DNA of 64,000 nucleotides, from NCBI GenBank assembly GCA_014896535.1, contig JADBKE010000007.1, positions 68,571-132,570 on the forward strand, read 5' to 3'. Shown here one piece after another: positions 122 through 45,162 of this stretch (position 1 is the first letter of the stretch; every line of letters starts with the position of its first letter). The DNA is from Candidatus Fermentithermobacillaceae bacterium (GTDB lineage: Bacteria; Bacillota; Sulfobacillia; Fermentithermobacillales; DUSS01). The notes beneath the pieces were generated by a model. The model was not told the DNA's origin, did no database searches, and worked only from the letters and a program-made list of their open reading frames with translations. A program made the position numbers and the translations under genes.

Positions 122-202
122 AAGGAAAGACCCGGGGCCGCGGCGGCAATGCTAAAATGAGATTCGTTAGCAAACCGAAATCGAAGATCAGGAGGGGCCT
201 GG

Positions 203-1009: not shown

Positions 1010-1022
1010 ACATCAAGTTTGC

Positions 1023-2015: not shown

Positions 2016-2326
2016 CGGTAAACTCACGCTCCAACGATTCCTTACGCCACATCCCAATCTTAGCATGTTTCAGTTCACGCTTGCGTACGGCATATCCTTA
2101 TACCTTTAGCGCCCTTAGTCCGCGCAGTCAATCGGCTGCTGCCCCCGTGATGCCAGGACACGGTTATTGACCCAGGACCAGCGAGTCTCCAAGTTTATTC
2201 GGTTCGTGGGCAGCCCTGTATTCGTCTGCCGGCTCCCGTCTTATTTCTAGCCCTGCACCGGGGTGCACACCACACCCGGTGCAAGCTACGCCTAACGACT
2301 TCGGGAGCCGGCCTTGTTCACCATTA

Positions 2327-3274
2327 CTAGTCACCCACGGTGACGCGAATCTCTCCGGAAGTATCAATTCGCAGAACGTGGCGGCCACTTCCCACGGCTG
2401 CGGTTTTCGCCACTTTGCCGGACCACCCGTGGGCAGAGTCCGTACGCTCCTGGTAACCCTCTACTGTACTCCACGCAACGTTGCCCGAAATCATCTCGGG
2501 TGAGACGGAACTTGCCAGCAACCTGACGTCGTCGGACGGGCTAAGTTCAACGGCAACCGGTCCGCTGGCCTGCACACTCCAGCCGACACTGAGGCCCCGC
2601 GCTACCACCCGCGCAGTTCCAAGTTCCGAAAACTCGATGGGACGGTCGGCCGGAGCCAGGATAATCCACCTGTGCTGCGACGTCACGTGTCCCAGACCGT
2701 CGCGGCGGGCCGGAGGTTTGAGGGACAGGTAAAGCGTCGTACCGTGCTTGCGGGATACCACTCGCGCTCCCTTTGCCCAGTTAATCGCGTCTTCTTCGGA
2801 AGATGCCGAAACGCGCCCATCTCCGAATATGACCATTTGCCCGGGCTTTTCCGGAACCGCAGCTCGAATTTCAACCTCGGCGTCCTCGGCGGTGACCACC
2901 ACTTTTGACACGTCTCTGTCTATGCTAACGGATGTCTCCGGAAGTTCCACCGAGTAAACCGTGGAGGTCAGAGCGCTTTGGATGGCCGGCAGCACTCCCA
3001 CTGCGGTCAGGGTGTAAACTCCGGCGGTGCACAAGACGACGCACAAAGTCACCAGCACTCCGAACCAGTCGTACCTGATGAAGGGCTTATCTTGTCCCGA
3101 CAAAGCGTTGGCCAGGAGCACTTCAACACCAACCAGGATCAGCACGACGGGCCACCACCGAACCGCGATTTCCAGGGACGTCCCCCAGCCCCGTACTTGG
3201 CCCACCATAATGAGGACGCCAAACAGTATCAGCGCAAGTCCCATCGAAAAGGAACCGACCCGCCACTGTCGCAT
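2327..3274 (-). CDS. membrane protein, LiaF-like / putative-adhesin (DUF4097-like) C-terminal domain
   Basis: 315-aa ORF with two N-terminal TM helices then a beta-rich domain; last gene of the sigma/anti-sigma/membrane-protein string. Confidence 0.45.
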   Translation of the reverse strand: MRQWRVGSFSMGLALILFGVLIMVGQVRGWGTSLEIAVRWWPVVLILVGVEVLLANALSGQDKPFIRYDWFGVLVTLCVVLCTAGVYTLTAVGVLPAIQSALTSTVYSVELPETSVSIDRDVSKVVVTAEDAEVEIRAAVPEKPGQMVIFGDGRVSASSEEDAINWAKGARVVSRKHGTTLYLSLKPPARRDGLGHVTSQHRWIILAPADRPIEFSELGTARVVARGLSVGWSVQASGPVAVELSPSDDVRLLASSVSPEMISGNVAWSTVEGYQERTDSAHGWSGKVAKTAAVGSGRHVLRIDTSGEIRVTVGD

Positions 3275-3310
3275 GGCTATTCATCCTCCTCTACGATAGA
3301 TTTCCTGGAC

Positions 3311-4192
3311 TCACGGATTCTCCCGGCTTCGGCCCCCCTCGGCTGGAGTCCTCCGCCCAATCGGCGTCCCCAGGGCCAGCCGCAGCCCGGCGCCGATGAG
3401 GACGCCCGCTGCCACAACAGTCTTCAGGAGGGATACGAGCCGGTAGTCGAGAAGGGGAACCACAAGATTGTCGAAGAGCGCCATACAGCCCAGAACGATG
3501 AGGGCGGTACCCACCCATTTTTGATGAGCCGCGATCCATCCGACGAAACCCGCGTCTTCAGGATGCTTTCCTGCGGCCGGGATACTCCACGATGCCCCGG
3601 TGCGCTCGACCTGAGGGCTTTCCCCTGCCTGGGACGCATCGAGACCGGCGATTCTGGACCCCGGTGTTCCATTGAGGGCCATTGCGGAAGCAATCTGTAA
3701 AGCATCGAAGAAGCTGTAGAACCATATCACCGGCAGCATGAAGAGGAAAAAGCTCAAGTGCAACCAGTCCATGAGAAACAGGGCGCCGAAGAAAGAAGCC
3801 ATGAACGCGAGGCCCCTTTCCTGCCATCCGAGATACATGTGGCCGGCTCCGGGGACTACGCTAAACAACAGGGCCCACAAGGTGCTCTTCTGTCCGGTCC
3901 GAAGGCCTTCCCCGAGCCCGCCGAAGAGCTGCCAGTCCCGGACCTCTTCGCCCCGATTCAGGCGGCCGCACAGGTTGAGAGCGTCAAAGAGCCCGTACAC
4001 CCACAGAATGGGAAGCGGCGCAAGCAGCACCGTGAACACACCGCGTTCGATGGACCCCAGGAAAGCCACCAGGAACATCCAGCCGAGGAAGATGCCCATC
4101 AGCGTCAATCCTCGGACCGCAAACCCCAGGTACAGGTGGCCGAGCCCCGGCACAGCCGAAAAGATGAATGTGAGAAAGGCGCTCTTACGCAA
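3311..4192 (-). CDS. polytopic membrane protein with internally repeated VPG(L/A)GH(L/M)YLG motif
   Basis: 293-aa hydrophobic ORF; motif duplicated at residues ~13 and ~115; family not recognised. Confidence 0.45.
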   Translation of the reverse strand: MRKSAFLTFIFSAVPGLGHLYLGFAVRGLTLMGIFLGWMFLVAFLGSIERGVFTVLLAPLPILWVYGLFDALNLCGRLNRGEEVRDWQLFGGLGEGLRTGQKSTLWALLFSVVPGAGHMYLGWQERGLAFMASFFGALFLMDWLHLSFFLFMLPVIWFYSFFDALQIASAMALNGTPGSRIAGLDASQAGESPQVERTGASWSIPAAGKHPEDAGFVGWIAAHQKWVGTALIVLGCMALFDNLVVPLLDYRLVSLLKTVVAAGVLIGAGLRLALGTPIGRRTPAEGGRSRENP

Positions 4193-4359
4193 CGCCCAAG
4201 GCCTCCTTTCCGCATTACCCTTTGATTTCCGTCTCCGGTCCCCGCTTTAGATTCCTCCCCAGACTTCGCTGCCGTTGGTGACGAACGCGATCGCCAAGGC
4301 TCCGTCTGTCACCCTCTCAGACCCCCCCTCAGAGTTCCGGCGGTTATGTCCTCACTGTC

Positions 4360-4962
4360 CTATCTCATCACCGCATCTACCCAGGACGATATCCTGTCAA
4401 TGACCTTGTTCGACCAGCCCGAGGGCATCTCTTCGCTGACCCGCACTATGGTTTTTCCTGTCTCGTACAGGGCCGACGGCGCGGTGCGGGATACCGCGTC
4501 AAACCATCCACCGGCAAGAAGCATGAGCGTGATAGCTGCCGCTACGGCGTAGTTGCGCAGGGCCGCAAGTCGGTCGGGGGTTGGGTTCTGCCTTTCCCAA
4601 TCGCATCTGCGGCGATGGCCGTGACTGCGGGCACAAACCTGTTCCGCATCGGGCCGCCGCACCAGCGCCGCACCAGGCCCCCGCGCCAGCGCCGACAGAA
4701 CCCGTTGGACGAAGTCCGGGCGCAACGTCATTTCAGCCAGTTCCACGTCCCGAGCATCCACCGTGGCAAGGTAGGTCTCCAGGCAGACGTCGCAGGTGGA
4801 AAGGTGCTCCTCCATCTGCCGCCTCAACTCCCCCGGCACAAAGCCTTTCTTAAAAGCAGCCCACTGTTGGGGAGAGTAATGCCCGGCCATGTCCGGGCCG
4901 CGCACATCGGAGCCGGACACGTTCGAGCCAGGCCTATTCGTCCTGCGGGAATTCGGAGTCAT
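4360..4962 (-). CDS. anti-sigma factor, zinc-finger (HxxxCxxC) type with one TM segment
   Basis: HLSTCDVCLETY motif, TM helix AAAITLMLLAGGW; overlaps the upstream ECF sigma gene. Real start probably the internal ATG at 4890 (MAGHY...). Confidence 0.5.
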   Translation of the reverse strand: MTPNSRRTNRPGSNVSGSDVRGPDMAGHYSPQQWAAFKKGFVPGELRRQMEEHLSTCDVCLETYLATVDARDVELAEMTLRPDFVQRVLSALARGPGAALVRRPDAEQVCARSHGHRRRCDWERQNPTPDRLAALRNYAVAAAITLMLLAGGWFDAVSRTAPSALYETGKTIVRVSEEMPSGWSNKVIDRISSWVDAVMR

Positions 4963-5557
4963 ACCTTCTCAAGGCCTCCCTGAGCATTTTCCTAGCCCGG
5001 TACAACCTGGACTCCACCGTTTTGACGCTGACGCCTTCGCGACCGGCGATGGACTCGTAATCGTATCCGCCTGCGTAGTACAGGAGAAAGGTTCGCCGGT
5101 AAACCGGAGGCAACGCCCTCACGGCCCCGGCAATCCACTCCATCCCGAGTTGCCTCATAAACTCGTCTTCGGCGGAAGGACAGTCGGCGGTGCGTGCCGC
5201 GCCCGAAAGCTCCGGGACGTAACGCTCTGGATCGTGCGGGACGGCAAGTCCTTGCCGCCGGTACCAACCTGCCCCATCCGGTATGTCCGCGGGACTCTCC
5301 AGCAGCCTCAGCCGGGCGTTCCTCCTGCGCCAGTCGATGGCCTTGTTTACCGCTATGCGCGCCATCCACGCCCTGAGATTCCCTCCTTTGAATTCCGGTA
5401 ACGACAGATAAATCTTAAGAAACGTCTCCTGAAGCACGTCCTCAGCAGCCACCGGGTCGCGGACCACCGGCAGAATGACTGCGAAGAGGAACCCTTTGTA
5501 AGCGTCGAGTATCTCACCGAAAGCCTGGGTGTCCCCGCTCTTCGCTCTCTCCACCAT
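4934..5557 (-). CDS. ECF (sigma-70 family) RNA polymerase sigma factor
   Basis: sigma-70 region 2 (FLFAVILPVVRDPVAAEDVLQETFLKIY) and region 4 (YRRTFLLYYAGGYDYESIAGREGVSVKTVESRLYRARKML); start taken at ATG 5557. Confidence 0.75.
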   Translation of the reverse strand: MVERAKSGDTQAFGEILDAYKGFLFAVILPVVRDPVAAEDVLQETFLKIYLSLPEFKGGNLRAWMARIAVNKAIDWRRRNARLRLLESPADIPDGAGWYRRQGLAVPHDPERYVPELSGAARTADCPSAEDEFMRQLGMEWIAGAVRALPPVYRRTFLLYYAGGYDYESIAGREGVSVKTVESRLYRARKMLREALRRYDSEFPQDE

Positions 5558-5845
5558 CTGTGACTCGCGGTCGACGGCTAACCCCTCCTCTGCCGGCTTC
5601 CACAAGTACTTAACGCTCAAAACACCGGAACCCCTGCACGCCTTCGTCGTTCTACCCGGCGCAGCCCAGGCCATCTACGAGTTCAGAAACGCTTTGGCGG
5701 AGCACAGGCACTCCATTGTGGACATAACCCCCATGATGCGGAACCTGACCCGTTGAGTGAGAGGCTGCAAAAAAGCGGGACCTCGGACCCGGGAGACCAA
5801 CACGCCGTAGGGGGCACTTGCTGAACCGCTCGAAACGGGCGCTCC

Positions 5846-5968
5846 GTCAGGCGCGGTGAAGGAAGAAGATGTGGAGGAAGAAGACGTGGCTGCTTTCTGC
5901 CCGTACTGTGGTCAGAAGGTCGGGTCAGACTTCAACTTCTGCCCCAGATGCGGGAAAAAGCTTCCGGA
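5846..5968 (+). CDS. small zinc-ribbon protein (CPxCG-x11-CPRCG)
   Basis: 40-codon frame ...AAFCPYCGQKVGSDFNFCPRCGKKLPDGG*; only GTG starts available (5846/5861/5876); absent from the >=60-aa track. Confidence 0.3.
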
Positions 5969-6020
5969 CGGCGGCTGATACGACGGAGTTTGCAGGTATA
6001 CCCGCTGAGGTTCGCCGCTC

Positions 6021-6300
6021 TCAGCCATCCAGCAGACTTTCAAGCCAGCTCGAGAGTTCTCTATCCGCGATTTTGCCCTCGTAACGGCCAACCGGCGTGG
6101 GACCTCTGAAGGCGAGAAGCGTCGGGATCGCCGTGATGCCGAATCTTGAGGCGCAATGGCCAGCATCCATGAACGTTTCGGCATAATTTCACATCGGAGC
6201 ACCTGATCCAGCACCACGCTGATTGAAGCATAATGGCCTCGCACGCAGGAGTCGAACCAATCACCGAATCCGGCTGCTTTGGCGGGCTCTGCCAGGCCCG
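6021..6300 (-). pseudogene. thioredoxin remnant (frameshifted, internally deleted)
   Basis: frame ending at 6021 encodes FMDAGHCASRFGITAIPTLLAFRGPTPVGRYEGKIADRELSSWLESLLDG*, a thioredoxin C-terminal half with WCGPC degraded to GHCAS. An N-terminal-like piece (..EAIMLQS..) lies in another frame upstream; no intact ~105-aa frame. Confidence 0.45.
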
Positions 6301-6889
6301 GCTCCACTGGCGGTCTATAATATCCTGCCGCATCAGCCTTGTCTTCGCTCATCTGGGGCTCTGTTTCCTTCCCACTGCTTCCCAGGAACGCTCACCTCTA
6401 CTAAACCGTAATCCGCCGGATCTGTGCTAAATCTCCCGCCAGCAAGTAATTTTTGCTTGTGACCTGGCCGCCCTGGTTGTCTATCTACGTCCGATAATTC
6501 ACTAAGGGTCCATGATGATATCTCGAGAGAGGGTCTTTAATTTCGAGTACCGTTGTCCTGCTCGATATGAGCCTTTCCATCTGTTCAGGGTCCATGGATA
6601 CTTTCACCATACTTCTCGCTCGATTTGTCTGTATCTGATCTCAAATGAGTGCATCCGCACATCTTACCCTTCATGTCCATTCCTTTCTTGCAACGCCCAG
6701 CTTCCTCGCCATGTTTCTGAATCACGCATTTTCAGTCTTCTACCATTTTCCCAGCTCCACAGCGCCTCCCGCACCACCATTGGGCCTTTCTCCTGTGGCC
6801 TTCCAGCACCCCCACCGCTTCAGAATGAAAGCCGCGGAGGCTCCTCACCTTCGCCAATGGATCATATTGAGATGATGAGCTGGAGCTGT

Positions 6890-7222
6890 TCAGTGCTCCT
6901 TATCTCCGTTCATGCCGCCTAATTTCCGCCGGTTGATGGTTCCATCCGGTCTGAGAATACCCGCGCCGAAGGCATCCACGACCCGGCGCCATCCGATTGT
7001 GCCCGGCGAGACAACCTCCCTGCTCACCTCGTCAGCGTCGATGATAACCGCTCCCAGCTCCCGGAGCATCCGCGACACGGTGCTCTTCCCGCTGGCTATC
7101 CCACCGGTCAAACCTATAACATAGAGACCCTTGTATTTCATGCTGTCCTTTCGCTCCCGGCTTGTCCGGGCAGCCCTGTCGGTCCGCCACCCTTTCGGCC
7201 AGGAAACCCGCCAATCTGGCAC
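6890..7222 (-). pseudogene. coaE: dephospho-CoA kinase (coaE), truncated after ~83 residues
   Basis: MKYKGLYVIGLTGGIASGKSTVSRMLRELGAVIIDADEVSREVV... P-loop N-terminus, but the frame stops at 6890 (normal CoaE is ~200 aa). No continuing frame downstream. Confidence 0.6.
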
Positions 7223-7291
7223 CCTCCGGCCGCGGCCGGCCCCGACCCGGCAAACCCGTCGAACCGGCCGGCCCGGTGCCTTCCTTTACGA

Positions 7292-10237
7292 TCATACTTC
7301 GTACCACGTTTGCCCGACTCCTATGTCCACCTCGAGGGGAACGGAGAGCTCCCTGACGTTCTCCATCTCTTCCCGAACCATCTTTTCCATGGCATCCCGC
7401 TCGTCCGGGGGGATTTCGAAGATGAGCTCGTCGTGAACCTGGAGGATCATCTTCGACCTGAACCCCTCCTTCCGGAGCCGCCGGAATATCCTCACCATGG
7501 CCAGTTTGATGATGTCGGCAGCGGAACCCTGTATCGGGGTGTTGATGGCAGTCCGCTCCGCAAATCCCCTGACAGCTCTGTTCTTCGCGTTGATGTCGGG
7601 AATCGGCCGCCGGCGTCCGAAGATGGTCGTCACGTACCCGTTCGTCCTTGCCTTTTCGATCGCCTCGTCCATGTATTTTTTGACCATGGGATAACGGCGG
7701 AAGTAGGCATCGATAAAGCGGCGGGCCTCTTCCCTGCTCACGCCGGTCTGCTTCGCCAGGCCGTAATCGGATATCCCGTAGACGACACCGAAGTTTACCG
7801 CCTTGGCTCTGGAGCGGAGCTCGGGCGTCACGTCCTCCAGCGGCACCCCGAAAATCTCCGAAGCGGTTCGCCTGTGGATGTCCTCTTTCCTGCGGAAAGC
7901 GTCGATGAGAGACGGGTCGCCCGATACGTGGGCCAGTACTCTGAGTTCGATCTGCGAGTAATCCGCGGAAAGGAGAAGGTACCCCGGTTCCGCCCGGAAT
8001 ATCTTCCTTATCGTCTTGCCCAGATCGCCCCTGACCGGAATGTTCTGAAGGTTCGGTTCTGAACTGGAAAGCCTTCCGGTTGCGGTGACGGTCTGGTGGA
8101 AAGTCGAGTGAATCCTTCCGTCCTCGCCCACCACCTCGGGGAGGATGTCCAGGTAAGTGGATTTAAGCTTCTGGTACTGCCGGTATTCTAGAATCCTGTC
8201 GGCGATTTCGTGATGCTGCGACAGTTCCTCCAATACCTCTGCATCGGTGGAGTAACCCGTCTTGGTCTTTTTGACCGGTGGGAGCTTCAAATCTTCGAAC
8301 AGGACCTCCTGGAGCTGCTTGGGAGAGCCTATGTTGAACCTCTTTCCCGCCAGGCGGTAGATGGTTTCCTCGACATCCCTCATTCTGCTCTCGAATTCTT
8401 TCGCGAGATCTCTACCGGTCTCGAGATCCACGCATATCCCCGCAACCTCCATCGCCGCCAGGACCTCGATGAGCGGAAATTCGATTTCCACCGCAAGATC
8501 GTAGAGCCCGTCTTCCGATAGCCGCTGCCGCAGCCTGTCTACGAGAAGCGCCGAGGCAACCGCGCCGCAAGCCAGGTGAGCTCTGTGAGAGGAAACCGCA
8601 TCGCGACTATCCCTCTCCGCCTTCGGCCACTCGTAACGGGACGGCGGGACCTCCAGCGAGATTTCGTGGGCGGAGAAGTCTCCGATCTCGTAAGTCGTCC
8701 TGGTGGGATCCAGGAGGTACATGGCAACCTGCGTGTCGAATACTTCGCCCCGAACGTTGAAGCCCCGCTTCATGGCGAGCACATACAGCCACTTTATATC
8801 GTGGCCGACCTTTCGAATCGAAGCATCTTCCAGCAAAGCTCGCAAACCATCGGGAAGCACGGCTTCATCTCCGGCCAGGTACGCCTTTCTTCCGTCTGAA
8901 AGACCCACGAGAGCGGGAACCCCCGTCTCCCGGTCCTCGGGCACGGAATAAACCGACAGCACGCGCGACCGCCGTACCTCGTCGCAAAATCGTTCTAGGT
9001 CTCCGGGGGTTCTCAAGAGATGGATTTCCGGAACTTCTTCCACGAAAAGCGCGGGCCGGAACGGCCTTCTCTCCGCCCCTTGTCGGTCCGGACCCGGCGC
9101 TTCTCCCGGTTCCCCGACCGGACCCGGTGCCTGCCCCTCATCCACTTCCCGGGCTGAACCCGGCTGCGGAGCTCGTCCCGCCTCCAGGCGTACTTCGCCG
9201 GGAGAAACCTCCGCTTCGTGCGGAGCCCCGCTGTCCACGGACGAAGGCAGGAGCTTGAGCCTGGATATGAGCGAATGGAATTCGAGCCGCTTGAACACCT
9301 CGGCCGCTTTCTCCGGGTCCATGCCCGGCCACTCCAAGCGCTCAAGGTCCTGCTCTACGGGGGCGTCTCGCAAGATGGTGGCAAGTTCCCTGGAGAGGAA
9401 GGCGATTTCTCGCCCGTTTCTGAGAAGAGACTGAACCCTCGCCGGGCCGATCTCGTCCAGGTGCTCGAAGACCCCCTCCAGATTCGAATAACGCCTGAGG
9501 AGCTCGACGGCCGTCTTTTCGCCGATGCCTTTCACTCCCGGTATGTTGTCGCTGTGGTCGCCCGCTAGGCCCTTCAGATCGGGTATTTGGGAGGGCCCGA
9601 CTCCCATTTCCTCGCGAACCCGCTCCGGGTCAAACTCCTTCACATCGCTGATGCCCTTGACGGGAACCACTGCGGAAATCGCGGGGGATACTAGTTGCAG
9701 GCAATCCCTGTCGCCGGACAGGATGAGCACGGAGAAACCTTCTTCGACGGCTTTCCGGGACAGCGTCCCGATGATGTCGTCGGCTTCGTACCCTTCTTTC
9801 TCGGCCACGGGTACTCTCAGAGCGTCTAAAACCTCGCGAAGCAGCGGAATCTGGACTTTGAACTCATCGGGCGGGGGCTTGCGAGTAGCCTTATATTCGG
9901 CGAAAGTCTTGTGGCGAAAAGTCGGACCTGGAAGGTCGAACGCTGCGACAACGTGAGTCGGCTTTCTCTCCGCCAGAAACCTGAGAAGCATGTTCACGAA
10001 ACCGTAGACGGCGTTTGTGGGAACACCCGACTGGGTACGGAGAGCCGGAACCGCGTAAAACGCCCTCCTGGCGAGAGAATGGGTATCCACCAGGAGGATA
10101 ACCTTACGCCCCTCGCCGGCACCCGCGCCATCCGCTCCTCGGGGGCTGCCAGCTAACAGGGTCCAGGAAAATTTCCAGTGATAGCTCAAATGGGAGGCCC
10201 CCTTTCCGGCATGACCTCGCCCTTGCGCCGGCTTCAA
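7292..10237 (-). CDS. polA: DNA polymerase I
   Basis: 5'-3' exonuclease N-terminus (LLVDTHSLARRAFYAV), 3'-5' exo and polymerase domains (motif A DYSQIELR, motif C QVHDEL). Start uncertain: the TTG at 10237 is the track choice and the true start is probably ~100 nt further downstream. Confidence 0.9.
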   Translation of the reverse strand: MKPAQGRGHAGKGASHLSYHWKFSWTLLAGSPRGADGAGAGEGRKVILLVDTHSLARRAFYAVPALRTQSGVPTNAVYGFVNMLLRFLAERKPTHVVAAFDLPGPTFRHKTFAEYKATRKPPPDEFKVQIPLLREVLDALRVPVAEKEGYEADDIIGTLSRKAVEEGFSVLILSGDRDCLQLVSPAISAVVPVKGISDVKEFDPERVREEMGVGPSQIPDLKGLAGDHSDNIPGVKGIGEKTAVELLRRYSNLEGVFEHLDEIGPARVQSLLRNGREIAFLSRELATILRDAPVEQDLERLEWPGMDPEKAAEVFKRLEFHSLISRLKLLPSSVDSGAPHEAEVSPGEVRLEAGRAPQPGSAREVDEGQAPGPVGEPGEAPGPDRQGAERRPFRPALFVEEVPEIHLLRTPGDLERFCDEVRRSRVLSVYSVPEDRETGVPALVGLSDGRKAYLAGDEAVLPDGLRALLEDASIRKVGHDIKWLYVLAMKRGFNVRGEVFDTQVAMYLLDPTRTTYEIGDFSAHEISLEVPPSRYEWPKAERDSRDAVSSHRAHLACGAVASALLVDRLRQRLSEDGLYDLAVEIEFPLIEVLAAMEVAGICVDLETGRDLAKEFESRMRDVEETIYRLAGKRFNIGSPKQLQEVLFEDLKLPPVKKTKTGYSTDAEVLEELSQHHEIADRILEYRQYQKLKSTYLDILPEVVGEDGRIHSTFHQTVTATGRLSSSEPNLQNIPVRGDLGKTIRKIFRAEPGYLLLSADYSQIELRVLAHVSGDPSLIDAFRRKEDIHRRTASEIFGVPLEDVTPELRSRAKAVNFGVVYGISDYGLAKQTGVSREEARRFIDAYFRRYPMVKKYMDEAIEKARTNGYVTTIFGRRRPIPDINAKNRAVRGFAERTAINTPIQGSAADIIKLAMVRIFRRLRKEGFRSKMILQVHDELIFEIPPDERDAMEKMVREEMENVRELSVPLEVDIGVGQTWYEV

Positions 10238-36418: not shown

Positions 36419-37651
36419 ATGAAAGACTTCAGTTTGAGCTCGGTTGGCTCGGGAGAAATTGGATCGCTAAAGGACTCTGGCCCGACGGCGGAGGACTGGT
36501 TCCTCTGCGTGAACTTCTACAGCGCGGGCGATATCATTGAGACTTACGGGGCCTGGCCGTACCATGTCTTGACTCCAAGGATCTTGGCCGATTTGTATAA
36601 TATGCCCTCCAGCACGCCGCTTGAGCAAGAACCGGCGGCTCGATCTTTTTTCAAAGTGCTGGAAGGCAGGATAGCTCCTGCTTTCCCCTTCCTTGGTGAA
36701 GAGGAAGGCAGCACATTGGAAAGCTTTTTTGCCAATCACCGGAGAGAGGTTTACCCGCCTGTCAAAGACCTTTTCTTAAGGCTGGCCGGCATCGAGAGTC
36801 CCGCTCCTCGGGAAGCTTCGCATGGAACGGGTGGGCTTTCCGACAAAGTGCTTCTTATATTCCAGCACCTCCTCATCTTGCGCCTCCGAGAAGAAGAAAG
36901 GAAGGCCGGCCTCTGGGAAAAAAGGACTCCTGCTCAAAAGAAAGGAACGCTGTTCGCGCTCAACCCCAGTAGCCGCACGACCTTTACCAGGATCAAAGCT
37001 CTTCCCGTGGGCAGGGACACGAGGCTTGCTTTCCCATGGGGCGGAATCTACAAAGCCTATGGAAAACTCTTGCCCCTGATGGAGAATAGGTACACTAAAT
37101 TCATCTTTTCTACGGCAGATGAGAATCTCCGCATGCTAATAGATGGTCACGTACTTAAACCGTTGGTCCTCTCGGGGCTCATGAAGCTCGAAGGTGACAT
37201 CGCGAATATGCAGAAGGGCGCGTATCTCATTCCCAACGTCCCTTCCGTATCTTGGGGCGAGATTGAAGGTCTGATGGAAGAAATCTCGATGGCTGCGCGG
37301 GATGTAGCACGAAAGACTCGCCCCCTCATACCGGACCTAGTGGATCTGTGGAGGTCTTCAAGGTATTCGTACCTCGATGGGCATGGTGATTTCGTTGAAA
37401 TGGCCTATACCGTCCTTTTGGGGCTTCTCATCTTTTGGGCAAACCAAGATGGAATTCTTCCCGACCCACCCGAGTTCAGCCTTGCTGGAAATTACGCAGC
37501 TGTGAAACGAACGTTTTGGGAGATTCTTTGCGGCAGGTACCCGCCTCTGCCGGGGATCGTTGTGCTCAAGGGCGCGAAAAGGGCGTGGGATTGGATCTTG
37601 AAACAGGCGGAAGGCGAAAACGTAACGGTCCGGGCCGTAGCGGTCCCTTAG
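36419..37651 (+). CDS. hypothetical protein (no recognised family)
   Basis: 410-aa ORF 25 nt downstream of the previous gene. Confidence 0.5.
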   Translation: MKDFSLSSVGSGEIGSLKDSGPTAEDWFLCVNFYSAGDIIETYGAWPYHVLTPRILADLYNMPSSTPLEQEPAARSFFKVLEGRIAPAFPFLGEEEGSTLESFFANHRREVYPPVKDLFLRLAGIESPAPREASHGTGGLSDKVLLIFQHLLILRLREEERKAGLWEKRTPAQKKGTLFALNPSSRTTFTRIKALPVGRDTRLAFPWGGIYKAYGKLLPLMENRYTKFIFSTADENLRMLIDGHVLKPLVLSGLMKLEGDIANMQKGAYLIPNVPSVSWGEIEGLMEEISMAARDVARKTRPLIPDLVDLWRSSRYSYLDGHGDFVEMAYTVLLGLLIFWANQDGILPDPPEFSLAGNYAAVKRTFWEILCGRYPPLPGIVVLKGAKRAWDWILKQAEGENVTVRAVAVP

Positions 37652-37657
37652 GGTGCC

Positions 37658-38364
37658 TTAGTAAGGAAACTGCTCGACCGCGCTGCGTATGCCACCTAAG
37701 AAAGCACGTAAAATCACGGCATCTTGAGGCCGACAGTGAGAAACTAGTAGGCCCGCGGAACTCCGCATGATGGTGCCCCAGGCCCGCGCAGCACCCGCCA
37801 GTCTGGACGCCCAAGACTGACCAGACAGCCGGGATTCGTCAATACATCTTCGCGTAGTACTTTGTATCATGGGGTGCCAGGAGAACCGTTTCTGCGACAT
37901 GCTGATGCTCGAACGCATCATCTGGACCCACTTGTCGCGCCTATCGTAATAACTCGGTAGGACCCCGCCGAAAGGCACCTTATACAGCGACTCCAAATCG
38001 TGCGCCTCTGAACCCTCGACGCCGTCCCCGAATTGCCAGCCGTTCACCCCGTGAACACAGGCTTCCGGCCACCACCCGTCGAGGATGCTCAGGTTTAACA
38101 CACCGTTCATAGCAGCTTTCATACCTGAGGTGCCGCAGGCCTCGAGAGGACGCCCGGGGGTTATTGAGCCAAACATCCGAACCCCTGGTCATGAGCCGGC
38201 CGATTTTCATGTCGTAGTTCTCGAGGAAGACCACGCTCTTTGGGATACTTCGGGGCGTAGCGAACCAGATTTGCAACTAGCTCCTTGCCCGTATCGTCCT
38301 GCGGGTGCGCCTTTCCGGAAAAGAACATCTGAATACGCCCGTCTTCCGGGTAAGGTTCAATCAC
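37658..38364 (-). pseudogene. glgP: alpha-glucan (glycogen) phosphorylase C-terminal remnant, >=2 frameshifts
   Basis: three consecutive minus-frame pieces: QMFFSGKAHPQDDTGKELV.. / VVFLENYDMKIGRLMTRGSDVWLNNP.. / ..EACGTSGMKAAMNGVLNLSILDGWW..; N-terminal ~500 aa absent. Confidence 0.6.
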
Positions 38365-38437
38365 CTCCGACCCCGTATGTCAACGGCGACTCTCACGCCC
38401 GTGTCCCCCGGTTGCCGAAAAGCAGAACCCGTCAACT

Positions 38438-38686
38438 GGGTGCCGCTTCTCAGTGCCCGGCGATGAGAGCGGCGGTGCTCAATTCCGGTAGCCAGCATTA
38501 TCACCGCCGCCTCGCCGGCTCATTTGGGAGTCACGGTCCCTTAGTCGCCCTCGGTTTCGGAAGCGTTTATTTCCCGAGCGTCCTCATATTCTCCGCTGTC
38601 CTGTGCAAGCACCGTTCCGTTAATCGACTCATTTTGGAATTCCATTAAACCTCAGTTAGAAGCAGATTAAACCTGAGCTTAAGGAT
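38438..38686. repeat. diverged copy A of PepSY-3'end / response-regulator-promoter junction (PepSY body deleted)
   Basis: ~85-100% identity to 45556-45729 plus 46344-46403; identical cores tatttcccgagcgtcctcatattctccgctgtcctgtgc and actcattttggaattccattaaacctcagttagaagcagattaaac. Confidence 0.6.
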
Positions 38687-38691
38687 CGGCT

Positions 38692-39054
38692 ATGGCGAGA
38701 ATCCAAGCTATGACCGGTCCCGAACAGGCGCACGGCGACTATAACCATGTAGATCTTGACGACCCGGAGTTAATAGGGTCGGCGGATGACGGCAGGATAT
38801 TAGTGCAAATCGCCGCTCCGGACGGGCGGGTATTGAACGCTTCAGGGACTTTGAGAGGCACCCTCCTGCCCCCAGGATACGTTGGTCCCCCAGTGCTGTC
38901 AGAAGTGAATGGACAACCAATGATCATCGCAGGAGAACGACTGGCCGGCGGGGCGCTGGTTCAGGTGGCCCGACCCGTGGGAAGGGAGAGAGCGTTTCTC
39001 AGGATGCTGGCCGGGGTTATTTCATACTCGTCCCGCTTCTGTTCGCTTGACTGA
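38692..39054 (+). pseudogene. decayed response-regulator receiver-like ORF (paralog of the fragment at 46447)
   Basis: begins right after repeat copy A; HGDYNHVDLDDPE / DGRILVQIAAPDG weakly parallel to NHEGYHVEIARDG / DLVLLD..PG of OmpR-type receivers; acidic pocket lost. Confidence 0.3.
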
Positions 39055-39340
39055 TAGACGCATATGCCCTTGATAGCCTCGGCCTGGAAAACGGGGTGCT
39101 GCTCCTCGAGAAAAACAAGGTCCAGCCTCAGAGGTTTGAAGAGCTCTTCCAACTCGTTGTAAAGTCTCGCGTAAAAGGAAGGACGCTCTGAGGGTCCGGG
39201 AAGAGGACCGTCGGTTACCACGCCCACGTCGATATCGCTCAGGGGGTCATCCTCCACCACTTTTTCCCCAGCGAGGATCTTAACCCCCGTGCAGGCGCGG
39301 GAACCGAACAGGTATACCAGCGAGAACCCCAGTCTGTATG
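38961..39340 (-). pseudogene. MNT-type nucleotidyltransferase (HEPN/MNT antitoxin-like), N-terminally truncated, no HEPN partner
   Basis: ...LVYLFGSRACTGVKILAGEKVVEDDPLSDIDVGVV (GS-x-DxD motif); frame bounded by a TGA only 10 codons upstream of the GS motif with no start codon. Confidence 0.5.
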
Positions 39341-39523
39341 CGCATCACAAGAGTGACCCGCAAAGTATGGCTGCCCGACAAGTACGGAAGCGTACCGCCG
39401 TATGTAGTTGACACCAACTTTCTCGTAAACGAGGACAGCCGGACCATAGGTAAGCTCTACGGTTGGTTGTCCGAGGAGCGCGCCCCCAAGCAGATAGTTA
39501 CCAGGGCTGCTCGGTTGTGCAGG

Positions 39524-41554
39524 TTAAGCGCCCTCAGTTTGAACGCTTACCGGTGAACCGTACTCGGTTCGGGCAGTTAGCGGTGGACCATGTCCTGTTC
39601 CGGCAGTCGCCGGCGAAGCAGTCTCCAGCTCGAGTAATTCCACGTCTTTTCTGAGATCACGTAGGTCCCAGCGCCGCTTCTGGTACACCGTGAACGCGCA
39701 GTTGTCCCAGTACCGAGATTCCTGAAGATCTCCTTGCTGTTCAAGGAGCTTCGAAAGCCACAGAGCAGCGCAGGCGGAGTCCCGTTCATCGCCGCTCTTA
39801 CGGAAATAATCAAAAGCCTGCCTTGCGCAGGAAATGGCTTGCCTCAGTTTGTTTTGCTGCTTGAAAATGGATGACCGGGTCAAACGAATCCAGCCGATTT
39901 CGTTATGGTTCCTTTCATTGAGGATCTGCTCAGCCTTCCTGAGCAAGGTCTCAGCTTCTTCCAGTTCACCCATTCTAGCATAGATCTTGGCGAGCTCCAC
40001 CTGGGTGTAGGCTATATTAGGATGGGCTGGGTTGTCGACATATGGACCCGCGCCCTTCTCGATGTGCTCCTTGGCTTCTTGTAACCGGCCCTCGCGGTAA
40101 AGGATCATCCCCAGGTTATTATGGGCAGCAGCCCGGTGAGCTTCTGTGGCATGTTCGTCCTGCAAAACACTGAGGAACCTCTGTTTAGCTGCAACCCACT
40201 TACGTTTTCGAAGATGGATGATTCCCGTAAGTAGCTCGTAATTGCACCGCAAGAATCCGATCCTGGGGTCTGCCGAATCTTGCCCCGAGAACCAATCCTC
40301 CAGTTTGGCACACTGTTGCTCGGCAGCATCCAGTCTTGTCAGTTCGATCAAACATGAGATGCTTGAGCAAAGGAGAGCCCCGTAGGTGTATGATCGTGCT
40401 AAGTGTTGTTCCTTAAGGCCCTGACGGTACCAGCGAAGAGCACCTACTGGATCTCTATCGAAGAATGCGTGTCCCATCCGAAGGCACACTTCGGCAGTCA
40501 AATCGGCAGTCAGATCGGATAGCCGGTCCTCGGTGGCGCAGCTCAGGGCAAGCGACCCGAGGGCTCTGGCGGCATCGCCCTCACCTGCCAATACCATACA
40601 GCGTGCGGCCTCACACAGGAGAATCGCCTCCTCACGACGGTTCTCGATCATACGACGGAGCAGAGCGGCTCTATGCCATGCATCTGCTGCATCAGTGAAC
40701 AAGCCGTCCTTCTCGAATAGCCGGGCAGCATGCTCAAATCGAAACGATGCTTGGTCTATGAGGCCCGCACGGAGGAGGCACCGGGCCAGCCTTAGTTGAA
40801 AAAATGGGCCCGAATCTGGATACATCTCCATGGCCCTGGCAAGGGTTAGGTACATTGCTTTAATCTTGTCTTGAGTGTAGACACAACTCAATGGGAACTG
40901 AGGAGCGGCTGCGCTCAGGTTTACGCGATATCCGTCGGTGCTTTCCGCTAGAGTGATCAGGCCCCGAGCTTGAAGATTTGAGGCTAGCTCGATAAACGCT
41001 TGCTCCGTAAGGTTCGCTGTGGCAAGCACCCACTCGCTTCTCGCGTGCGGGCCAGCAATGTGGCACACTGCAAGAAGTCTCTTTTCGGGTTCCTCCAGGG
41101 CAACTGTATCCGCGATCACCATCGAACTGTGGGATTGGAGTTCCTTGATAACAGTAGCCAGGAAGTTCCGCACTGTGCGCGCTTCCGCATCGTTCAGCAT
41201 GCCTGTTGTTAGGTAAAAAGGTGCCCTAAAATCGTGGCCGCGAATTAGGTCCAGAAAAGTATCGATAACTTGACGAAGTCTCATGCGGTCCCGATCTTGC
41301 AGTGAGGGCTGCGTCCGATCGGTTTCCCACGTAGATAACTCGGGCAGTTCTTCAGAGTACAGCACAGACAACGGGACCCCCAGAAACGAGGCGATCCGAT
41401 CCTTCATGTCGTCGCTAAGCCCTTTGGCCCCGTTCAGTACCAGTGAAAGATGCGAAGCGGAAATCTGCGTTCCTTTGGCCAGGTCCTTCAGTCGAAGGCC
41501 TCTCATCTCGAGGAATGCTTTCACGTTACGGGAAAAGAGCGCTTGTGACGGCAT
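39524..41554 (-). CDS. HTH-XRE / TPR transcriptional regulator (RNPP/PlcR-Rap-NprR-like architecture, 676 aa)
   Basis: N-terminal HTH_XRE (LRLKDLAKGTQISASHLSLVLNGAKGLSDDMKDRIASFLGV), then ~550 aa of TPR-like helical repeats; SD AGGAGG 8 nt before ATG. Confidence 0.75.
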   Translation of the reverse strand: MPSQALFSRNVKAFLEMRGLRLKDLAKGTQISASHLSLVLNGAKGLSDDMKDRIASFLGVPLSVLYSEELPELSTWETDRTQPSLQDRDRMRLRQVIDTFLDLIRGHDFRAPFYLTTGMLNDAEARTVRNFLATVIKELQSHSSMVIADTVALEEPEKRLLAVCHIAGPHARSEWVLATANLTEQAFIELASNLQARGLITLAESTDGYRVNLSAAAPQFPLSCVYTQDKIKAMYLTLARAMEMYPDSGPFFQLRLARCLLRAGLIDQASFRFEHAARLFEKDGLFTDAADAWHRAALLRRMIENRREEAILLCEAARCMVLAGEGDAARALGSLALSCATEDRLSDLTADLTAEVCLRMGHAFFDRDPVGALRWYRQGLKEQHLARSYTYGALLCSSISCLIELTRLDAAEQQCAKLEDWFSGQDSADPRIGFLRCNYELLTGIIHLRKRKWVAAKQRFLSVLQDEHATEAHRAAAHNNLGMILYREGRLQEAKEHIEKGAGPYVDNPAHPNIAYTQVELAKIYARMGELEEAETLLRKAEQILNERNHNEIGWIRLTRSSIFKQQNKLRQAISCARQAFDYFRKSGDERDSACAALWLSKLLEQQGDLQESRYWDNCAFTVYQKRRWDLRDLRKDVELLELETASPATAGTGHGPPLTARTEYGSPVSVQTEGA

Positions 41555-41620
41555 GAGTGATTCCTCCTGGAAAAGGCCTGTTCGTCTTCCGTACGCTACG
41601 CTTACATTTGCGGTACCTGC

Positions 41621-41878
41621 TCAGCTTCTACGATCCTGGTTCCCCCGATCGACGGGTGTAGGGCATCCCCTCCAATAGGGGGCTTCGGAGGCATCTGCGG
41701 ACCGTGGCGGACAACGTGGGGGGGGGTTCTCCCTACTGCCGATATCGATTAGGAGTCCAGATGGGCACGACCAGACCGTGTCCGTACCCGAAAAGGCAGA
41801 CCATCCCACGAACCAGAAGACCGTCAGCCACACCACTAAAGTCATAAAGAAGGATTTTGTAGTACGACTTAGCCTCAC
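41621..41878 (-). CDS. small secreted/membrane protein (85 aa) upstream of and co-oriented with the RNPP-like regulator
   Basis: GTG start with strong SD GGGGAGGTG (7-nt spacer). N-terminal hydrophobic segment MTLVVWLTVFWFVGWSAFSG, then a polar tail with 3 Cys (..WSCPSG..PPPRCPP..WRGCP..). Confidence 0.45.
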   Translation of the reverse strand: MRLSRTTKSFFMTLVVWLTVFWFVGWSAFSGTDTVWSCPSGLLIDIGSRENPPPRCPPRSADASEAPYWRGCPTPVDRGNQDRRS

Positions 41879-42282
41879 ATCTGGCCACCTCCCCTGTTAT
41901 CTGTTCTTTAACCGCCCATTGCTTTCCTTCTCAGGAAAGTAGGATACTGGAGCATAGCGCAGGAGAGATACCTCTACCTTGCTTGTTTGCCGTAAGAATA
42001 GTTTTTGACGGCGAACATATACATGGCGCAGCCGTATCAACGGTCCCAGTGCTCGGGAATTTGCCGGTAAGCGACTCGGACCTCGGACACACGTGCCAGG
42101 GAGTTCATCCAATATCCCGCGTTTTACCCCCGGTGAACCACATGAAACGTGGAAGCACCAAGCAGCTTGATCCAGGCCGACTAGCCTTGTACTGTCTGAA
42201 TTGGGGACTTCATCTGGAGTTGCCGCATGCTGAAAGGAGGGCTTCGCACGAAACCAGGCTAGACTCGAAGGAGGTGAGAAAT

Positions 42283-43494
42283 GTGTTCAAAGTGGAAAAG
42301 GTGAGTCTCCCAGCTTCCACGGGTCTGATCCGCCTACTCGCTGACGGAAAATGGTGCGGCTCGGGGTGTGGCGACGGTTGCGGCAGGGGGTGCGGATTGG
42401 AATGCTACAACTGATGGAAGCATCTGGCAGACTCCCTGAATTCATCGCGCAGCGTGGCAACGCGACTTTCGATGACGCCTGAATCGGCGGTAGCTATAGC
42501 TCGAGCCTGTGTTGAGAAAATAGGAGGGCCCGACTTCTACATGTTTTTCGGCGGCGAACCCACCATGAACATTGCAGCAATCAACCGGGTATTTGACGCG
42601 CTCGGCGGAGACAACGCTCCACAGTTGTTTGGAATTGTGACTAATGGCACCTTTTCGCGGAAGGAAATTCAGCACCTTCTCGAAACCCACAAGATGACCC
42701 TGACATTCAGCATCGATGGTCCCCAGGACATACACGACTTTCTGAGACCCTACAGCGATGGGCGCGGCTCGTTCAATACCGTCCTAGATAACTTACGGTG
42801 GGCTCAGCAGTTCACTAGAGTAGGCGTTGAAGCTACTTTCACACCAGATCATATAAAACGTGGGTACTCTCTTGTAGACCTGATCGAGTTCTTTCATAGC
42901 ATCGGGATAGACGGGCCTCATATCGTGCCAGTAGCACCCAGGAATGGTTACCGCGGGTTCGAGCCCGATATCCTAATACGCGAGTACAAACAAGCTATTG
43001 ACTATTGTCTACAGTCATTTGTCGAGGGCCGTCCCCGCTGGTACACGCTCCTAGTGAACATTCTCGGCGCTTTTGCCGACGGTCGCAAGCGCGAGTACCT
43101 TTGTCCTGCAGGTGTTTCGACCCTCTGCGTCGATTCCAATGGAGACCTTCATCCGTGCTTTATGTTTGTGGGTGCAGCGGAATTCCTGCTAGGGAACATT
43201 TTCCATCTCGACAAATCCGATTTTGAAAAACGAAGAGACACCTTTATCCGGGCCGCACGCAAGTCCAACCGCAGTAATTGCAGTTCTTGCTGGGCCTCTA
43301 ACATATGCGGCGGCTGTATGGGAAGTGCTTTCTGGGCGACCGGGTGCCTTACAGACAATGACCCCGCATGGTGTGAGCTCCAGAGGCAGACCATTGCGTA
43401 CGCTGCACAGAGGCTTTCCAAACTCCACAGCGATCAAGCAGCCTGGCAATGTTTCGTGGACACACTCACAAAGGCAACAAACGACGTCGAATGA
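42283..43494 (+). pseudogene. radical SAM/SPASM maturase, SCIFF-maturase paralog, with in-frame TGA at the third Cys codon of CX3CX2C (42412-42414)
   Basis: track ORFs 41983..42414 and 42454..43494 share one frame separated only by that TGA. Strong SD GAAGGAGGTGA 8 nt before GTG 42283, and no SD before 42454. Joined N-terminus STGLIRLLADGKWCGSGCGDGCGRGCGLECYN[TGA]WKHL..SMTPE..FFGGEP aligns with the SCIFF maturase N-terminal region (CNLRCRYC...KMSPE...FFGGEP); C-terminal SPASM region also parallels SCIFF maturase (C.AGV..GDL.PC..F.G..EF....CxSCWA..CGGGC). Confidence 0.7.
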
Positions 43495-43515
43495 GAACGG
43501 GAGGTAGTGATTCCT

Positions 43516-45162
43516 ATGATCGCTAATTTTGCATGGATGTTCCCTTTGATGCGCAGATATCGTGTACTGACGGCTGTGGTGATAGGGATAGGGGTATTTC
43601 ACTGTGTGGCGCGTATGGGCTATCCCTGGGCTCAGAAGGTCTTCATAGACTCGGTAATCATGCCGAAACGAGCCGACTTGCTACCCGCAGCAGCAGCCCT
43701 GTTTGTCGCGACTGCAGTACTTGAGATCGGGGCAATGCTTCTCAATACATACATCTCGACCCTTTACTCGCAGAAGATATTGCTCTCGCTCAGAGAGGAG
43801 ATATACGGGAAGTACCGGGCCAGTAGTTACGTAACGCAAACCCGAGTTGAGCCTGGTAAGGTAGTATCACTGATGCTATCGGACGCCTCATCTGTGAGCG
43901 AGACTTTTAATGAGGTTATTCCCGAGCTGGCTGGTACGCTTGGAACATTAATCGTATACACGGCGGTGCTAGTTGCCCTGAATTACCGCCTTTTCCTGAT
44001 AGCACTGCTATTCCTACCCATTTATCTGCTCGGCCCAAGGCGATTCTCCCCGGTCCTGTACGGCCGCGGCCAGCAGGTACAGTCTGCGATAGAGGGTCTG
44101 AACTCGGTTCTCCAAGACGATTTAGCCAGGACCACTGACGTGTACGCAGTGGGGGCCAGAAACTGGTCGGTGGCACGTGTCCTTCAAGCCGCAAAGCAGG
44201 TGATGTCCGCGGTCAAGAAGCAAGCAATAGCTCTCCAGTTGCTGGGTTCATCAGTATTCGGTTCACTCATCATCTCCCAGGTCACCCTGCTCGTGGTTGG
44301 CGGCTACTTCGTGATCAACGGTACGATGCAGCTCGGACTCCTTCTTGCTTACGTGTCTTACACATCAGGGTTCTTCAATGCCTGCAAAGAGGTTTTCAGG
44401 GTGTCCGCAAGTCTTGCTGGACCTAAGGCGGCTTGGGACCGGATAACCGAGTTTTTGAAGACACTAGATCCAATCCCTAGTGAAGGTGAGCCGGCGGAGT
44501 TGACCGTACCGTCAGTGCTCCTCGAGGGCATCACTTTTGGGTACCAGCCGGACTCGCCTGTTATCCATGAGGTAAGCTTATCCGCTGACAGAGGTTCTAC
44601 ACTTTGTATTGTGGGTGCGAGTGGTTCAGGTAAAAGCACCGTTCTCCAGATAATCGCCGGATTCTTAAAGCCGTGGCGAGGAGTGTGCAGGGTGTTTGGG
44701 CACGAGACTTCCGGACTACATCCCGACGAACTCAGAGGCGCGGTGTCGTATGTGGTGCCGAATCCCCGAATGTTCCACGCCAGTCTGAAGGAGAACATCC
44801 TTCTCGGCAGAGAAGTCCGTCCTGAAGGTCTCGCCGCGGCCTGTGAAGTATCCGGAGTGAACGAGTTCGTAAAGGAACTGCCCGACGGTCTTGATACTGT
44901 GCTTGGGGACAAAGGTTACGGGCTGAGTTTGGGTCAACAGCAGCGAGTGGGTCTGGCGAGGGCTCTGGTTGGCAGGCCGAAGATTCTCGTTCTAGATGAA
45001 GCACTCTCGGGTGTGCATCCGCCGTTAGCAAGCCAGATCCTGACGCGCCTCAAAGAGTTCCAGCGGGATGGCATAATCATCCTCGCGACACACCGGGCGG
45101 ATACTATAGCCCACGCAGATCGAGTCGTTAACCTGGAGAATGGGAGATGCGTTGGGCCGTAA
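43516..45162 (+). CDS. ABC transporter, fused permease/ATP-binding protein (peptide-exporter type)
   Basis: 6-TM N-domain; Walker A GASGSGKST, signature LSLGQQQR, Walker B ILVLDEA; start set at ATG 43516 (SD GGGAGG). Confidence 0.8.
   Translation: MIANFAWMFPLMRRYRVLTAVVIGIGVFHCVARMGYPWAQKVFIDSVIMPKRADLLPAAAALFVATAVLEIGAMLLNTYISTLYSQKILLSLREEIYGKYRASSYVTQTRVEPGKVVSLMLSDASSVSETFNEVIPELAGTLGTLIVYTAVLVALNYRLFLIALLFLPIYLLGPRRFSPVLYGRGQQVQSAIEGLNSVLQDDLARTTDVYAVGARNWSVARVLQAAKQVMSAVKKQAIALQLLGSSVFGSLIISQVTLLVVGGYFVINGTMQLGLLLAYVSYTSGFFNACKEVFRVSASLAGPKAAWDRITEFLKTLDPIPSEGEPAELTVPSVLLEGITFGYQPDSPVIHEVSLSADRGSTLCIVGASGSGKSTVLQIIAGFLKPWRGVCRVFGHETSGLHPDELRGAVSYVVPNPRMFHASLKENILLGREVRPEGLAAACEVSGVNEFVKELPDGLDTVLGDKGYGLSLGQQQRVGLARALVGRPKILVLDEALSGVHPPLASQILTRLKEFQRDGIIILATHRADTIAHADRVVNLENGRCVGP

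Follow-up and report, generated by a model that had tools for sequence, protein, structure and literature searches.

When a small open reading frame (ORF) lies directly ahead of a regulator built from a helix-turn-helix (HTH) domain and tetratricopeptide repeats (TPR), does it encode the peptide to which that regulator responds? The question is raised by a locus in a stretch of 64,000 nucleotides of contig JADBKE010000007.1 from a Candidatus Fermentithermobacillaceae bacterium (assembly GCA_014896535.1; the whole stretch is called the window here), in which an 85-aa ORF is followed on the minus strand by a 676-aa regulator (Table 1). An initial annotation of this DNA had described the regulator as RNPP-like and the ORF as its candidate cognate signalling propeptide. 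The two genes belong to a conserved pair, in which the small products carry signal-peptide-like N-termini and peptide units under purifying selection, and the receptor combines an XRE-type HTH with a winged helix and TPRs. With moderate confidence, we take the ORF and the regulator to be the local copy of a lineage-specific two-gene module working like RRNPP quorum sensing, the signal gene of the window having diverged with its core out of frame. Judged from sequence, the family as a whole is probably a variant of RRNPP-like signalling, although it falls outside the length range of RRNPP receptors and is without demonstrable homology to them.

The conservation of the pair carries most of the weight. 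The family was found to comprise about 30 distinct loci, nearly all from Candidatus Fermentithermobacillaceae, with regulator homologues of 635–680 aa, and the pairing was examined in 22 genome loci and 14 metagenome loci, plus gene-called neighbourhoods. The initial annotation had named the lack of a small ORF beside orthologous regulators as one finding that would speak against it; such an ORF was present at nearly every homologous locus examined, co-oriented and 1–290 nt upstream of full-length regulator homologues (34–44% identity), the exceptions (L028, L030, and L031) being matches that are either partial or very distant. In L002, whose regulator is 44% identical to that of the window, and in L005, L006, L008, and L009, gene calling had itself put a small gene immediately ahead of the regulator and co-oriented with it, the called genes being 64–65 aa in four of these five and 130 aa in L009. 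Almost all loci follow one pattern, GGAGGTG, ATG, a signal-peptide-like N-terminus and then 1–4 tandem proline-rich units, over a total of 57–133 aa, some multi-repeat forms exceeding 100 aa. In a heuristic check, the family's small ORFs all had an n-region charge of +2 or +3, and each combined a hydrophobic core with a −3/−1 cleavage site. The neighbourhoods are unrelated between loci (cdaA-glmM-glmS, SIR2/spoIVA, radical SAM–ABC) and only the pair travels together.

The structure of the small products provides the second line of evidence. Four copies of ADGPAYPPPIVPPLPPG.NNIIIV were found in the L020 precursor, and the unit DGPAYPPPIVPPLPPG is also recorded in four copies within the family; L016 contains three copies of GPVLPLPLPPVEDDPP, L018 three of GGPLYPPPIVPPLEPPDQNSI, L029 two of TTCDDGPGIPIPIPPG, and L012 two of AGPGDVPP.(V/I)WPPVNNS, the putative cognate unit of the L029 receptor being CDDGPGIPIPIPPG. 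The clade nearest to the window (L002, L033, and L045) has one unit, CDPGIPPWP(L/P)DP..D(S/A)(L/I)P. Copies inside one precursor are identical in amino acids while many synonymous sites differ, which is strong evidence for translation of the unit and for purifying selection on it. In two contigs assigned to the same metagenome-assembled genome (MAG; DUUV01), L018 and L027, the receptors are 85% identical over the first 227 residues and the units differ, GGPLYPPPIVPPLEPPDQNSI in the former and DGPAYPRPIVPPMEPP.(Q/A)NNI in the latter; the two could be paralogous pherotypes or a strain mixture.

Four full-length relatives of the receptor at about 20% identity (L034, L035, L036, and L037) were also examined. 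In L035, a 43-aa gene begins 3 nt past the receptor stop and encodes MMRKLVLVLCLVFVLAGMAAPVYAATSVDPIWPTPPQVDPIWP, a signal peptide followed by two copies of VDPIWP, and in L034 a comparable small secreted peptide lies directly downstream of the receptor. This order matches the canonical layout of Bacillales RRNPP systems, receptor then propeptide (PMC9765709). The receptor homologue of L037 (P0032, 666 aa) stands in an operon with genes for MutL-like, YknX-like, FtsX, and ABC ATPase proteins (60–7569), and FtsX/ABC genes also adjoin the pair in L002 and L032.

In the window itself, the ORF and its Shine-Dalgarno (SD) sequence were confirmed directly from the DNA, the start codon being GTG. The 9-mer GGGGAGGTG has a single occurrence in the window, both strands counted, and the 7-nt spacer is as the initial annotation had it. 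In the sister strain L001, the SD reads AGGAGGTG, and GGAGGTG also precedes the peptide genes of the family. The hydrophobic N-terminus proposed earlier is likewise real: MRLSRTTKSFF is followed by MTLVVWLTVFWFVGW, a core of 15 aromatic and aliphatic residues. In the heuristic check, the n-region charge was +3, the 12-aa core had a Kyte-Doolittle value of 2.35, and a −3/−1 site was found between AFS and GTD; the cores of relatives are more hydrophobic than that of the window (2.7–3.6). The ORF stops 66 nt ahead of the ATG of the regulator, which does carry HTH_3 and TPR domains, and no terminator was predicted between the two genes in a scan of 39300–42500. As regards the cysteine motifs to which attention had been drawn, CPSG, PPPRCPP, and RGCP are all present in the tail as read, but the latter two depend on the frame, and the Cys/Pro motifs are not conserved.

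The frame dependence originates in a homopolymer within the ORF, which is the longest of the 64-kb window and its sole run of at least 8 nt, the next longest being 7 nt. The regulator of L001 is 98% identical to that of the window, and over a 3.3-kb block (39142–42468) the two strains share 98.5% identity with 47 substitutions and one indel, the difference between C7 in L001 and C9 in the window. As a result, the last ~30–35 residues are in different frames and the two strains read different tails, while the SD is conserved between them, as is the coding sequence from the start codon through codon 50 apart from the single change G25V. With C8, the third frame would be read, as ..ENPPHVVRHGPQMPPKPPIGGDALHPSIGG.. 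in a 91-aa product, and this length alone would bring the signal peptide into frame with the stretch aligning to the motif of the relatives, the alignment being weak. The MAFFT alignment of DNA pairs this stretch with the CDPGIPPWP.. core of L002, L033, and L032. In composition-controlled pairwise comparison with shuffles, the C8 frame scored z 2.3–2.7 and the other two frames z ≤0, and the profile hidden Markov model (HMM) of the clade gave a collinear alignment over 45 positions with the C8 frame, which was not significant (E about 1.5). These comparisons suggest that the C8 reading is probably the original 3′ part of the propeptide gene; whether or not it is, PPPRCPP and RGCP are frame artefacts.

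The small ORF of the window is thus most likely a syntenic but diverged copy of the propeptide gene, out of frame, and this copy is likely defective or switchable. The proposal of a cognate propeptide holds at the family level, through the pairing, the tandem repeats, and the synonymous-only divergence, but not for the copy in the window, which is off-profile and looks frameshifted or decaying. As the homologous core is out of frame with C9 and would need C8, the local module probably makes no normal signal at present. A second case was found in L032, whose propeptide gene (~5640–5700) carries a +1 frameshift right after CDPGIPPW, compared with the intact form ..CDPGIPPWPPDPPQTDAIPCVVG in its close relative L045 (447–818); disrupted signal genes therefore recur in this clade. 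The C9 tract is a candidate slipped-strand contingency tract within a signal-peptide gene.

Table 1. Features of the locus, in positions of the window.
Feature	Position	Strand	Remark
Regulator, 676 aa	39524..41554	minus	XRE-type HTH, winged helix, TPR
Small ORF, 85 aa as read (9-C frame)	41621..41878	minus	GTG start; syntenic position of the family's propeptide gene
Third-frame segment ..HVVRHGPQMPPKPPIGGDALHPSIGGTRIVEAEQVPQM, then stop	41602..41717	minus	aligns in DNA and protein with the CDPGIPPWP(L/P)DP..D(S/A)(L/I)P core of the nearest relatives
C9 homopolymer within the small ORF (plus strand: G9)	41718..41726	minus	C7 in L001
Shine-Dalgarno sequence GGGGAGGTG	41886..41894	minus	7 nt before GTG
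Sigma-H-like match AGGAAAG-N12-AAAGAAC	41918..41943 (approximate)	minus	starts ~50 nt upstream of GTG
Cys-rich precursor peptide, 43 aa, MFKVEKVSLPASTGLIRLLADGKWCGSGCGDGCGRGCGLECYN, then stop	42283..42414	plus	GGAGGTG ahead of start
5′-truncated radical SAM/SPASM maturase	42469..43494	plus	~104 N-terminal residues including CxxxCxxC absent
ABC exporter (ABC_membrane and ABC_tran) of the precursor-peptide cluster	43507..45162	plus	domain matches

In 15 other loci, a match to AGGAnnn-N11-12-RnnGAAT stands ahead of the peptide gene at a constant position, against a background rate of 0.013 per 330 nt; the form in the window is weaker. The match resembles what we take to be the sigma-H consensus, and the phr genes of B. 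subtilis are sigma-H dependent. No convincing inverted-repeat operator was found in 41540–42300, and no convincing sigma-70 promoter or terminator in 39300–42500. In 18 loci, all of them outside the clade of the window, a conserved leader lies 120–195 nt upstream of the peptide genes and after the sigma-H-like promoter (L005 7504–7612, L006 7362–7470, L011 4068–4176, L029 5470–5578, and 14 other loci). It consists of a TAGAAT −10-like box, an invariant CTCAGCCGG(C/T)ATCCACC, and a terminator made of a T run after a hairpin in which changes are compensatory. Neither the window nor this leader matched any Rfam family. The element may act as an attenuator or be a small RNA; its CAUCCACCUC resembles an anti-SD and might base-pair with GGAGGUG ahead of the peptide-coding sequence.

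The regulator is intact and still under constraint, its pN/pS between the window and L001 being 0.29. Domain searches gave HTH_3 (3.3e-6) and TPR_12 (5.5e-17), plus TPR_16 and TPR_2, and no match to an AAA or NB-ARC domain in Pfam or NCBIfam. In the AlphaFold2 model (pLDDT 81.7), an HTH (1–65) is followed by a helical linker (88–140), a winged helix (155–213), and a TPR superhelix (228–639), the last with pLDDT mostly above 90; a disordered C-terminal tail is restricted to the strain pair of the window and L001. A word-indexed search returned 12 full-length relatives conserved end to end with the regulator, one of them 98% identical and from a MAG, the rest 34–44% identical and 638–654 aa long. 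An exhaustive profile search of 1.84 billion representatives found only 21 proteins at E ≤1e-30, and in genome scans nearly all members came from Candidatus Fermentithermobacillaceae or from unclassified Bacillota MAGs, with one match in a complete genome (CP062796.1). Broader alignments contained no stretch conserved enough for a scan of metagenomes. Viral contigs yielded no relative, and a phage-borne origin in the manner of arbitrium is therefore not indicated.

The description of the regulator as RNPP-like is not borne out as a statement of homology. In a profile search of the PDB, generic TPR proteins came first and Rap phosphatases matched weakly (E 2.5e-5 to 1e-2), and the Foldseek top 50 contained no RNPP structure, the matches being OGT, LGN, APC, IFIT, and one STAND-TPR structure (6mfv); at 676 aa the protein is also too long. 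Eight STAND proteins aligned over the region that follows their AAA_16 domain, such proteins being 900–1250 aa long. Taken together, the fold and profile matches and the STAND relatives make the receptor look like an XRE HTH joined to a STAND winged helix and TPR arm, without the NTPase. In STAND regulators of the MalT/AfsR type (AAA_16, winged helix, TPR), the winged helix is likewise followed by a TPR arm. Those proteins differ in possessing a P-loop NTPase and a C-terminal LuxR or N-terminal SARP domain in place of the N-terminal XRE HTH, and the receptor gene described here is distinguished by its pairing with a secreted peptide gene.

Divergent from the regulator lies a cluster for a peptide that is made on the ribosome and modified after translation (RiPP), and the earlier statement that the 85-aa ORF is the only nearby candidate for a signal is wrong, since the gene of a 43-aa Cys-rich precursor lies ~400 nt away on the opposite strand (Table 1). 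Comparison with L001 revealed that a 1054-bp stretch (L001 8035–9088) is absent from the window, with the junction at 42468/42469. The absent stretch holds two precursor genes, MFRVEKVSLPRASRVGILSGFGCGMRCGRDCGAVCGWGCECKN and (V)LFKVERITLPPGSQISPLAGYVCGIGRCEGHICGFGCVCQN, together with the RRE-like N-terminus and the CNMRCRYC motif of the maturase. The maturase of L001 is intact with CNMRCRYC, and its best match is PapB (E 4.9e-54) at a score of 183.8, below the NCBIfam cut-off of 340, whereas that of the window starts after CxxxCxxC and thus lacks the intact motif of a PapB-type ranthipeptide cluster. The precursors of the window and L001 share the leader (M)F(K/R)VE(K/R)(V/I)(S/T)LP, and constitute an uncharacterised ranthipeptide-like family. 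The cluster resembles ranthipeptide/SCIFF-type (PapB-like) radical SAM clusters in having Cys-rich precursors beside a radical SAM/SPASM enzyme and an ABC exporter, and differs from them in its unassigned core pattern CGxGCGxGC...C(Y/K/Q)N, in the low PapB score of L001, and in the maturase of the window, which is without the radical SAM motif.

A selenocysteine reading of the in-frame TGA at 42412–42414 was considered for this cluster and rejected, because L001 shows the TGA to be the stop of the precursor gene. The TGA falls where the third Cys of CxxxCxxC would sit (..CGLECYN, TGA, W..), which is a coincidence; the precursor and the maturase appear continuous through it because the loss of 1054 bp joins the precursor gene to the maturase body.

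The pair in L002 also adjoins radical SAM and ABC genes. Radical SAM RiPPs controlled by Rgg/SHP have been described (PMC13361665, PMC8092268), and 196 biosynthetic gene clusters adjoin RRNPP systems (PMC10075063). By analogy with these cases, the cluster of RiPP, radical SAM, and ABC exporter genes is likely the output of the regulator in this clade.

How would such a module work? The small gene would have a promoter of its own, of the stationary-phase (sigma-H-like) type, and would be translated from the strong SD; its product would be exported via Sec and cut outside the cell, a step which in most family members would release 1–4 proline-rich units of about 15–20 aa. The peptide would then be re-imported and bind the cytoplasmic HTH regulator at its long TPR domain. 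The regulator would in turn alter the transcription of its own operon and, in this clade, probably also that of the divergently oriented genes for the Cys-rich RiPP, the radical SAM enzyme, and the ABC exporter. In the window, the normal signal would be lost either by decay or by an on/off switch at the homopolymer.

Comparison with known systems places the module near the RRNPP(A) families (Rap/Phr, NprR/NprX, PlcR/PapR, AimR/AimP, Rgg/SHP, ComR/ComS, and PrgX). Four of the five features of the RRNPP signature, taken as in PMC10075063, were counted as present, one of them, a Sec signal sequence in the propeptide, as putative from the heuristic check, the others being a propeptide of 10–100 aa (85 aa as read, 91 aa in the C8 frame), TPRs in the receptor, and direct neighbourhood (the 66-nt gap here, adjacency in about 30 loci). 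The feature that does not fit is receptor length, about 250–500 aa in the signature, and validated RRNPP receptors have 285–473 aa (PMC10075063), compared with 676 aa here and 635–680 aa in the family. Shared traits are the cytoplasmic receptor with a TPR domain, the N-terminal XRE-type HTH (in PlcR, NprR, and AimR), the adjacent small gene for a putative Sec-type propeptide, an adjacent biosynthetic cluster as the likely output, and tandem pheromone copies, duplications of which are known in Rap, NprR, PlcR, and AimR propeptides (PMC5199041, PMC9765709, PMC11343458). An RRNPP propeptide gene may lie upstream or downstream of its receptor (PMC9765709), while in the core family described here the upstream, co-oriented position is the rule. 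Further differences are an extra helical and winged-helix module of ~150 aa between HTH and TPR and a unit of about 15–25 aa, proline-rich and acidic, where RRNPP peptides have 5–10 aa. More tentatively, the family could be an undescribed class of Gram-positive peptide signalling that arose independently of RRNPPA, with receptors made of an XRE HTH and a STAND winged helix and TPR arm, with long proline-rich multi-copy pheromones, and, in the strain pair of the window and L001, with slippage among C7, C8, and C9 alternating signal producers and listeners.

Several observations weigh against reading the locus as an RRNPP-like signalling module. Homology to RRNPPA receptors is not demonstrable by sequence or by fold, and the closest relatives outside the family are STAND AAA_16-TPR proteins, which cover profile positions ~147–620. 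The putative pheromone unit is much longer and more proline-rich than any known RRNPP peptide. Two of the four distant relatives checked, L036 and L037, have no adjacent secreted peptide. Among the six-frame segments of the window, neither a profile HMM of 20 family peptides nor one of the 3 nearest-clade peptides significantly matched the 85-aa ORF or its alternative frames. The assignment of this ORF to the family is tentative, depending on synteny, the SD, a signal-like N-terminus, and a weak collinear alignment, and the C7/C9 difference could itself be an assembly error.

Among the alternatives, it is possible, although doubtful, that the ORF is a decaying propeptide pseudogene beside an orphan regulator that senses the peptides of neighbours or nothing at all, which would fit signalling at the family level and deny a function to the 85-aa product. 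The profiles that miss the ORF, a core without most of the prolines, the recurrence of a frameshift in a second lineage (L032 against the intact L045), the truncation of the neighbouring maturase, and a pN/pS of the regulator that speaks of only moderate constraint all agree with decay, as do the different tails read by strains with 98% identical regulators, neither frame being like the relatives. Against decay, the strong SD and the sequence from the start codon through codon 50 (G25V apart) are shared by the two strains and the promoter-like match is retained. In each strain, moreover, a single slip would restore the in-frame length of the tract, as would be expected from a reversible switch or a sequencing error no less than from decay. 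An unlikely alternative is that the small protein is a secreted or envelope-associated proline-rich effector, co-regulated with the receptor and not its ligand, the TPR domain sensing a protein or small molecule in the manner of STAND/MalT-type regulators. The sensor domain of MalT, a STAND protein, binds a non-peptide ligand, and the likeness of winged helix and TPR arm to STAND AAA_16-TPR proteins, the generic TPR scaffolds returned by the fold search, and units unusually long for an imported pheromone can all be read in this way. What such a product would leave unexplained is that the peptide gene adjoins the receptor gene even where it lies downstream, that no other conserved gene goes with the pair, and that a strictly conserved unit varies in repeat number, as is typical of released signal peptides.

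Two further proposals were weighed. If the true signal were the divergent Cys-rich peptide, modified by the radical SAM enzyme and exported by the adjacent ABC transporter, the 85-aa ORF would be irrelevant. The divergent arrangement of regulator and cluster in the window, L001, and L002, and the frequent control of RiPP clusters by peptide quorum sensing (PMC13361665, PMC8092268, PMC10075063), lend this some appeal, but regulator and cluster occur together in this clade only, whereas the upstream proline-rich ORF goes with the regulator everywhere, the RiPP is the output and not the ligand in the known systems cited, and the maturase of the window is truncated; we regard the proposal as very unlikely. 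Hardly any probability is given to the view that the upstream ORF is a cis-acting leader, either a SecM/MifM/VemP-type arrest peptide or an upstream ORF that stalls ribosomes at polyproline, controlling translation or transcription of the regulator. Polyproline stretches do stall ribosomes without EF-P. Like arrest peptides, the ORF is small, upstream, and on the same strand, with an N-terminal export or anchor segment and a proline-containing C-terminal part (PPP, PPxPP) directly ahead of the gene that would be controlled, and the leader and terminator conserved in 18 loci indicate that cis-regulation exists at this locus. The gene downstream, however, encodes an HTH-TPR transcription factor and no part of the export machinery such as Sec or YidC, the two genes may be as much as 290 nt apart, 1–4 copies of a unit are hard to square with a single arrest site, and the order is receptor first, peptide gene second in L035 and L034.

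The RRNPP-like signalling module thus retains our preference, and if it is correct several consequences follow. RRNPP systems in Bacillota have been catalogued with a receptor filter of 250–500 aa (PMC10075063), which would exclude this family. The design space of such systems would widen to receptors of ~650 aa that are STAND-like in ancestry and contain an extra winged-helix module, and to long proline-rich pheromones in up to four copies. The system would belong to a lineage of uncultured thermophiles, abundant in anaerobic digesters, would be tied in one clade to a ranthipeptide-like RiPP cluster, and would offer a concrete set of testable receptor/peptide pairs. The homopolymer polymorphism points to possible phase-variable signal production, which bears on the origin of signal-negative 'cheater' variants in quorum-sensing populations.

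Downstream of the regulator, the window (37650–39300) and L001 (12413–14600) are no longer collinear. L001 contains there an intact gene of the glycogen-phosphorylase family (537 aa), of which the window has an 88%-identical remnant at 37836–38363, and the window also has a Pol-beta-type nucleotidyltransferase ORF on the minus strand at 38961–39260.

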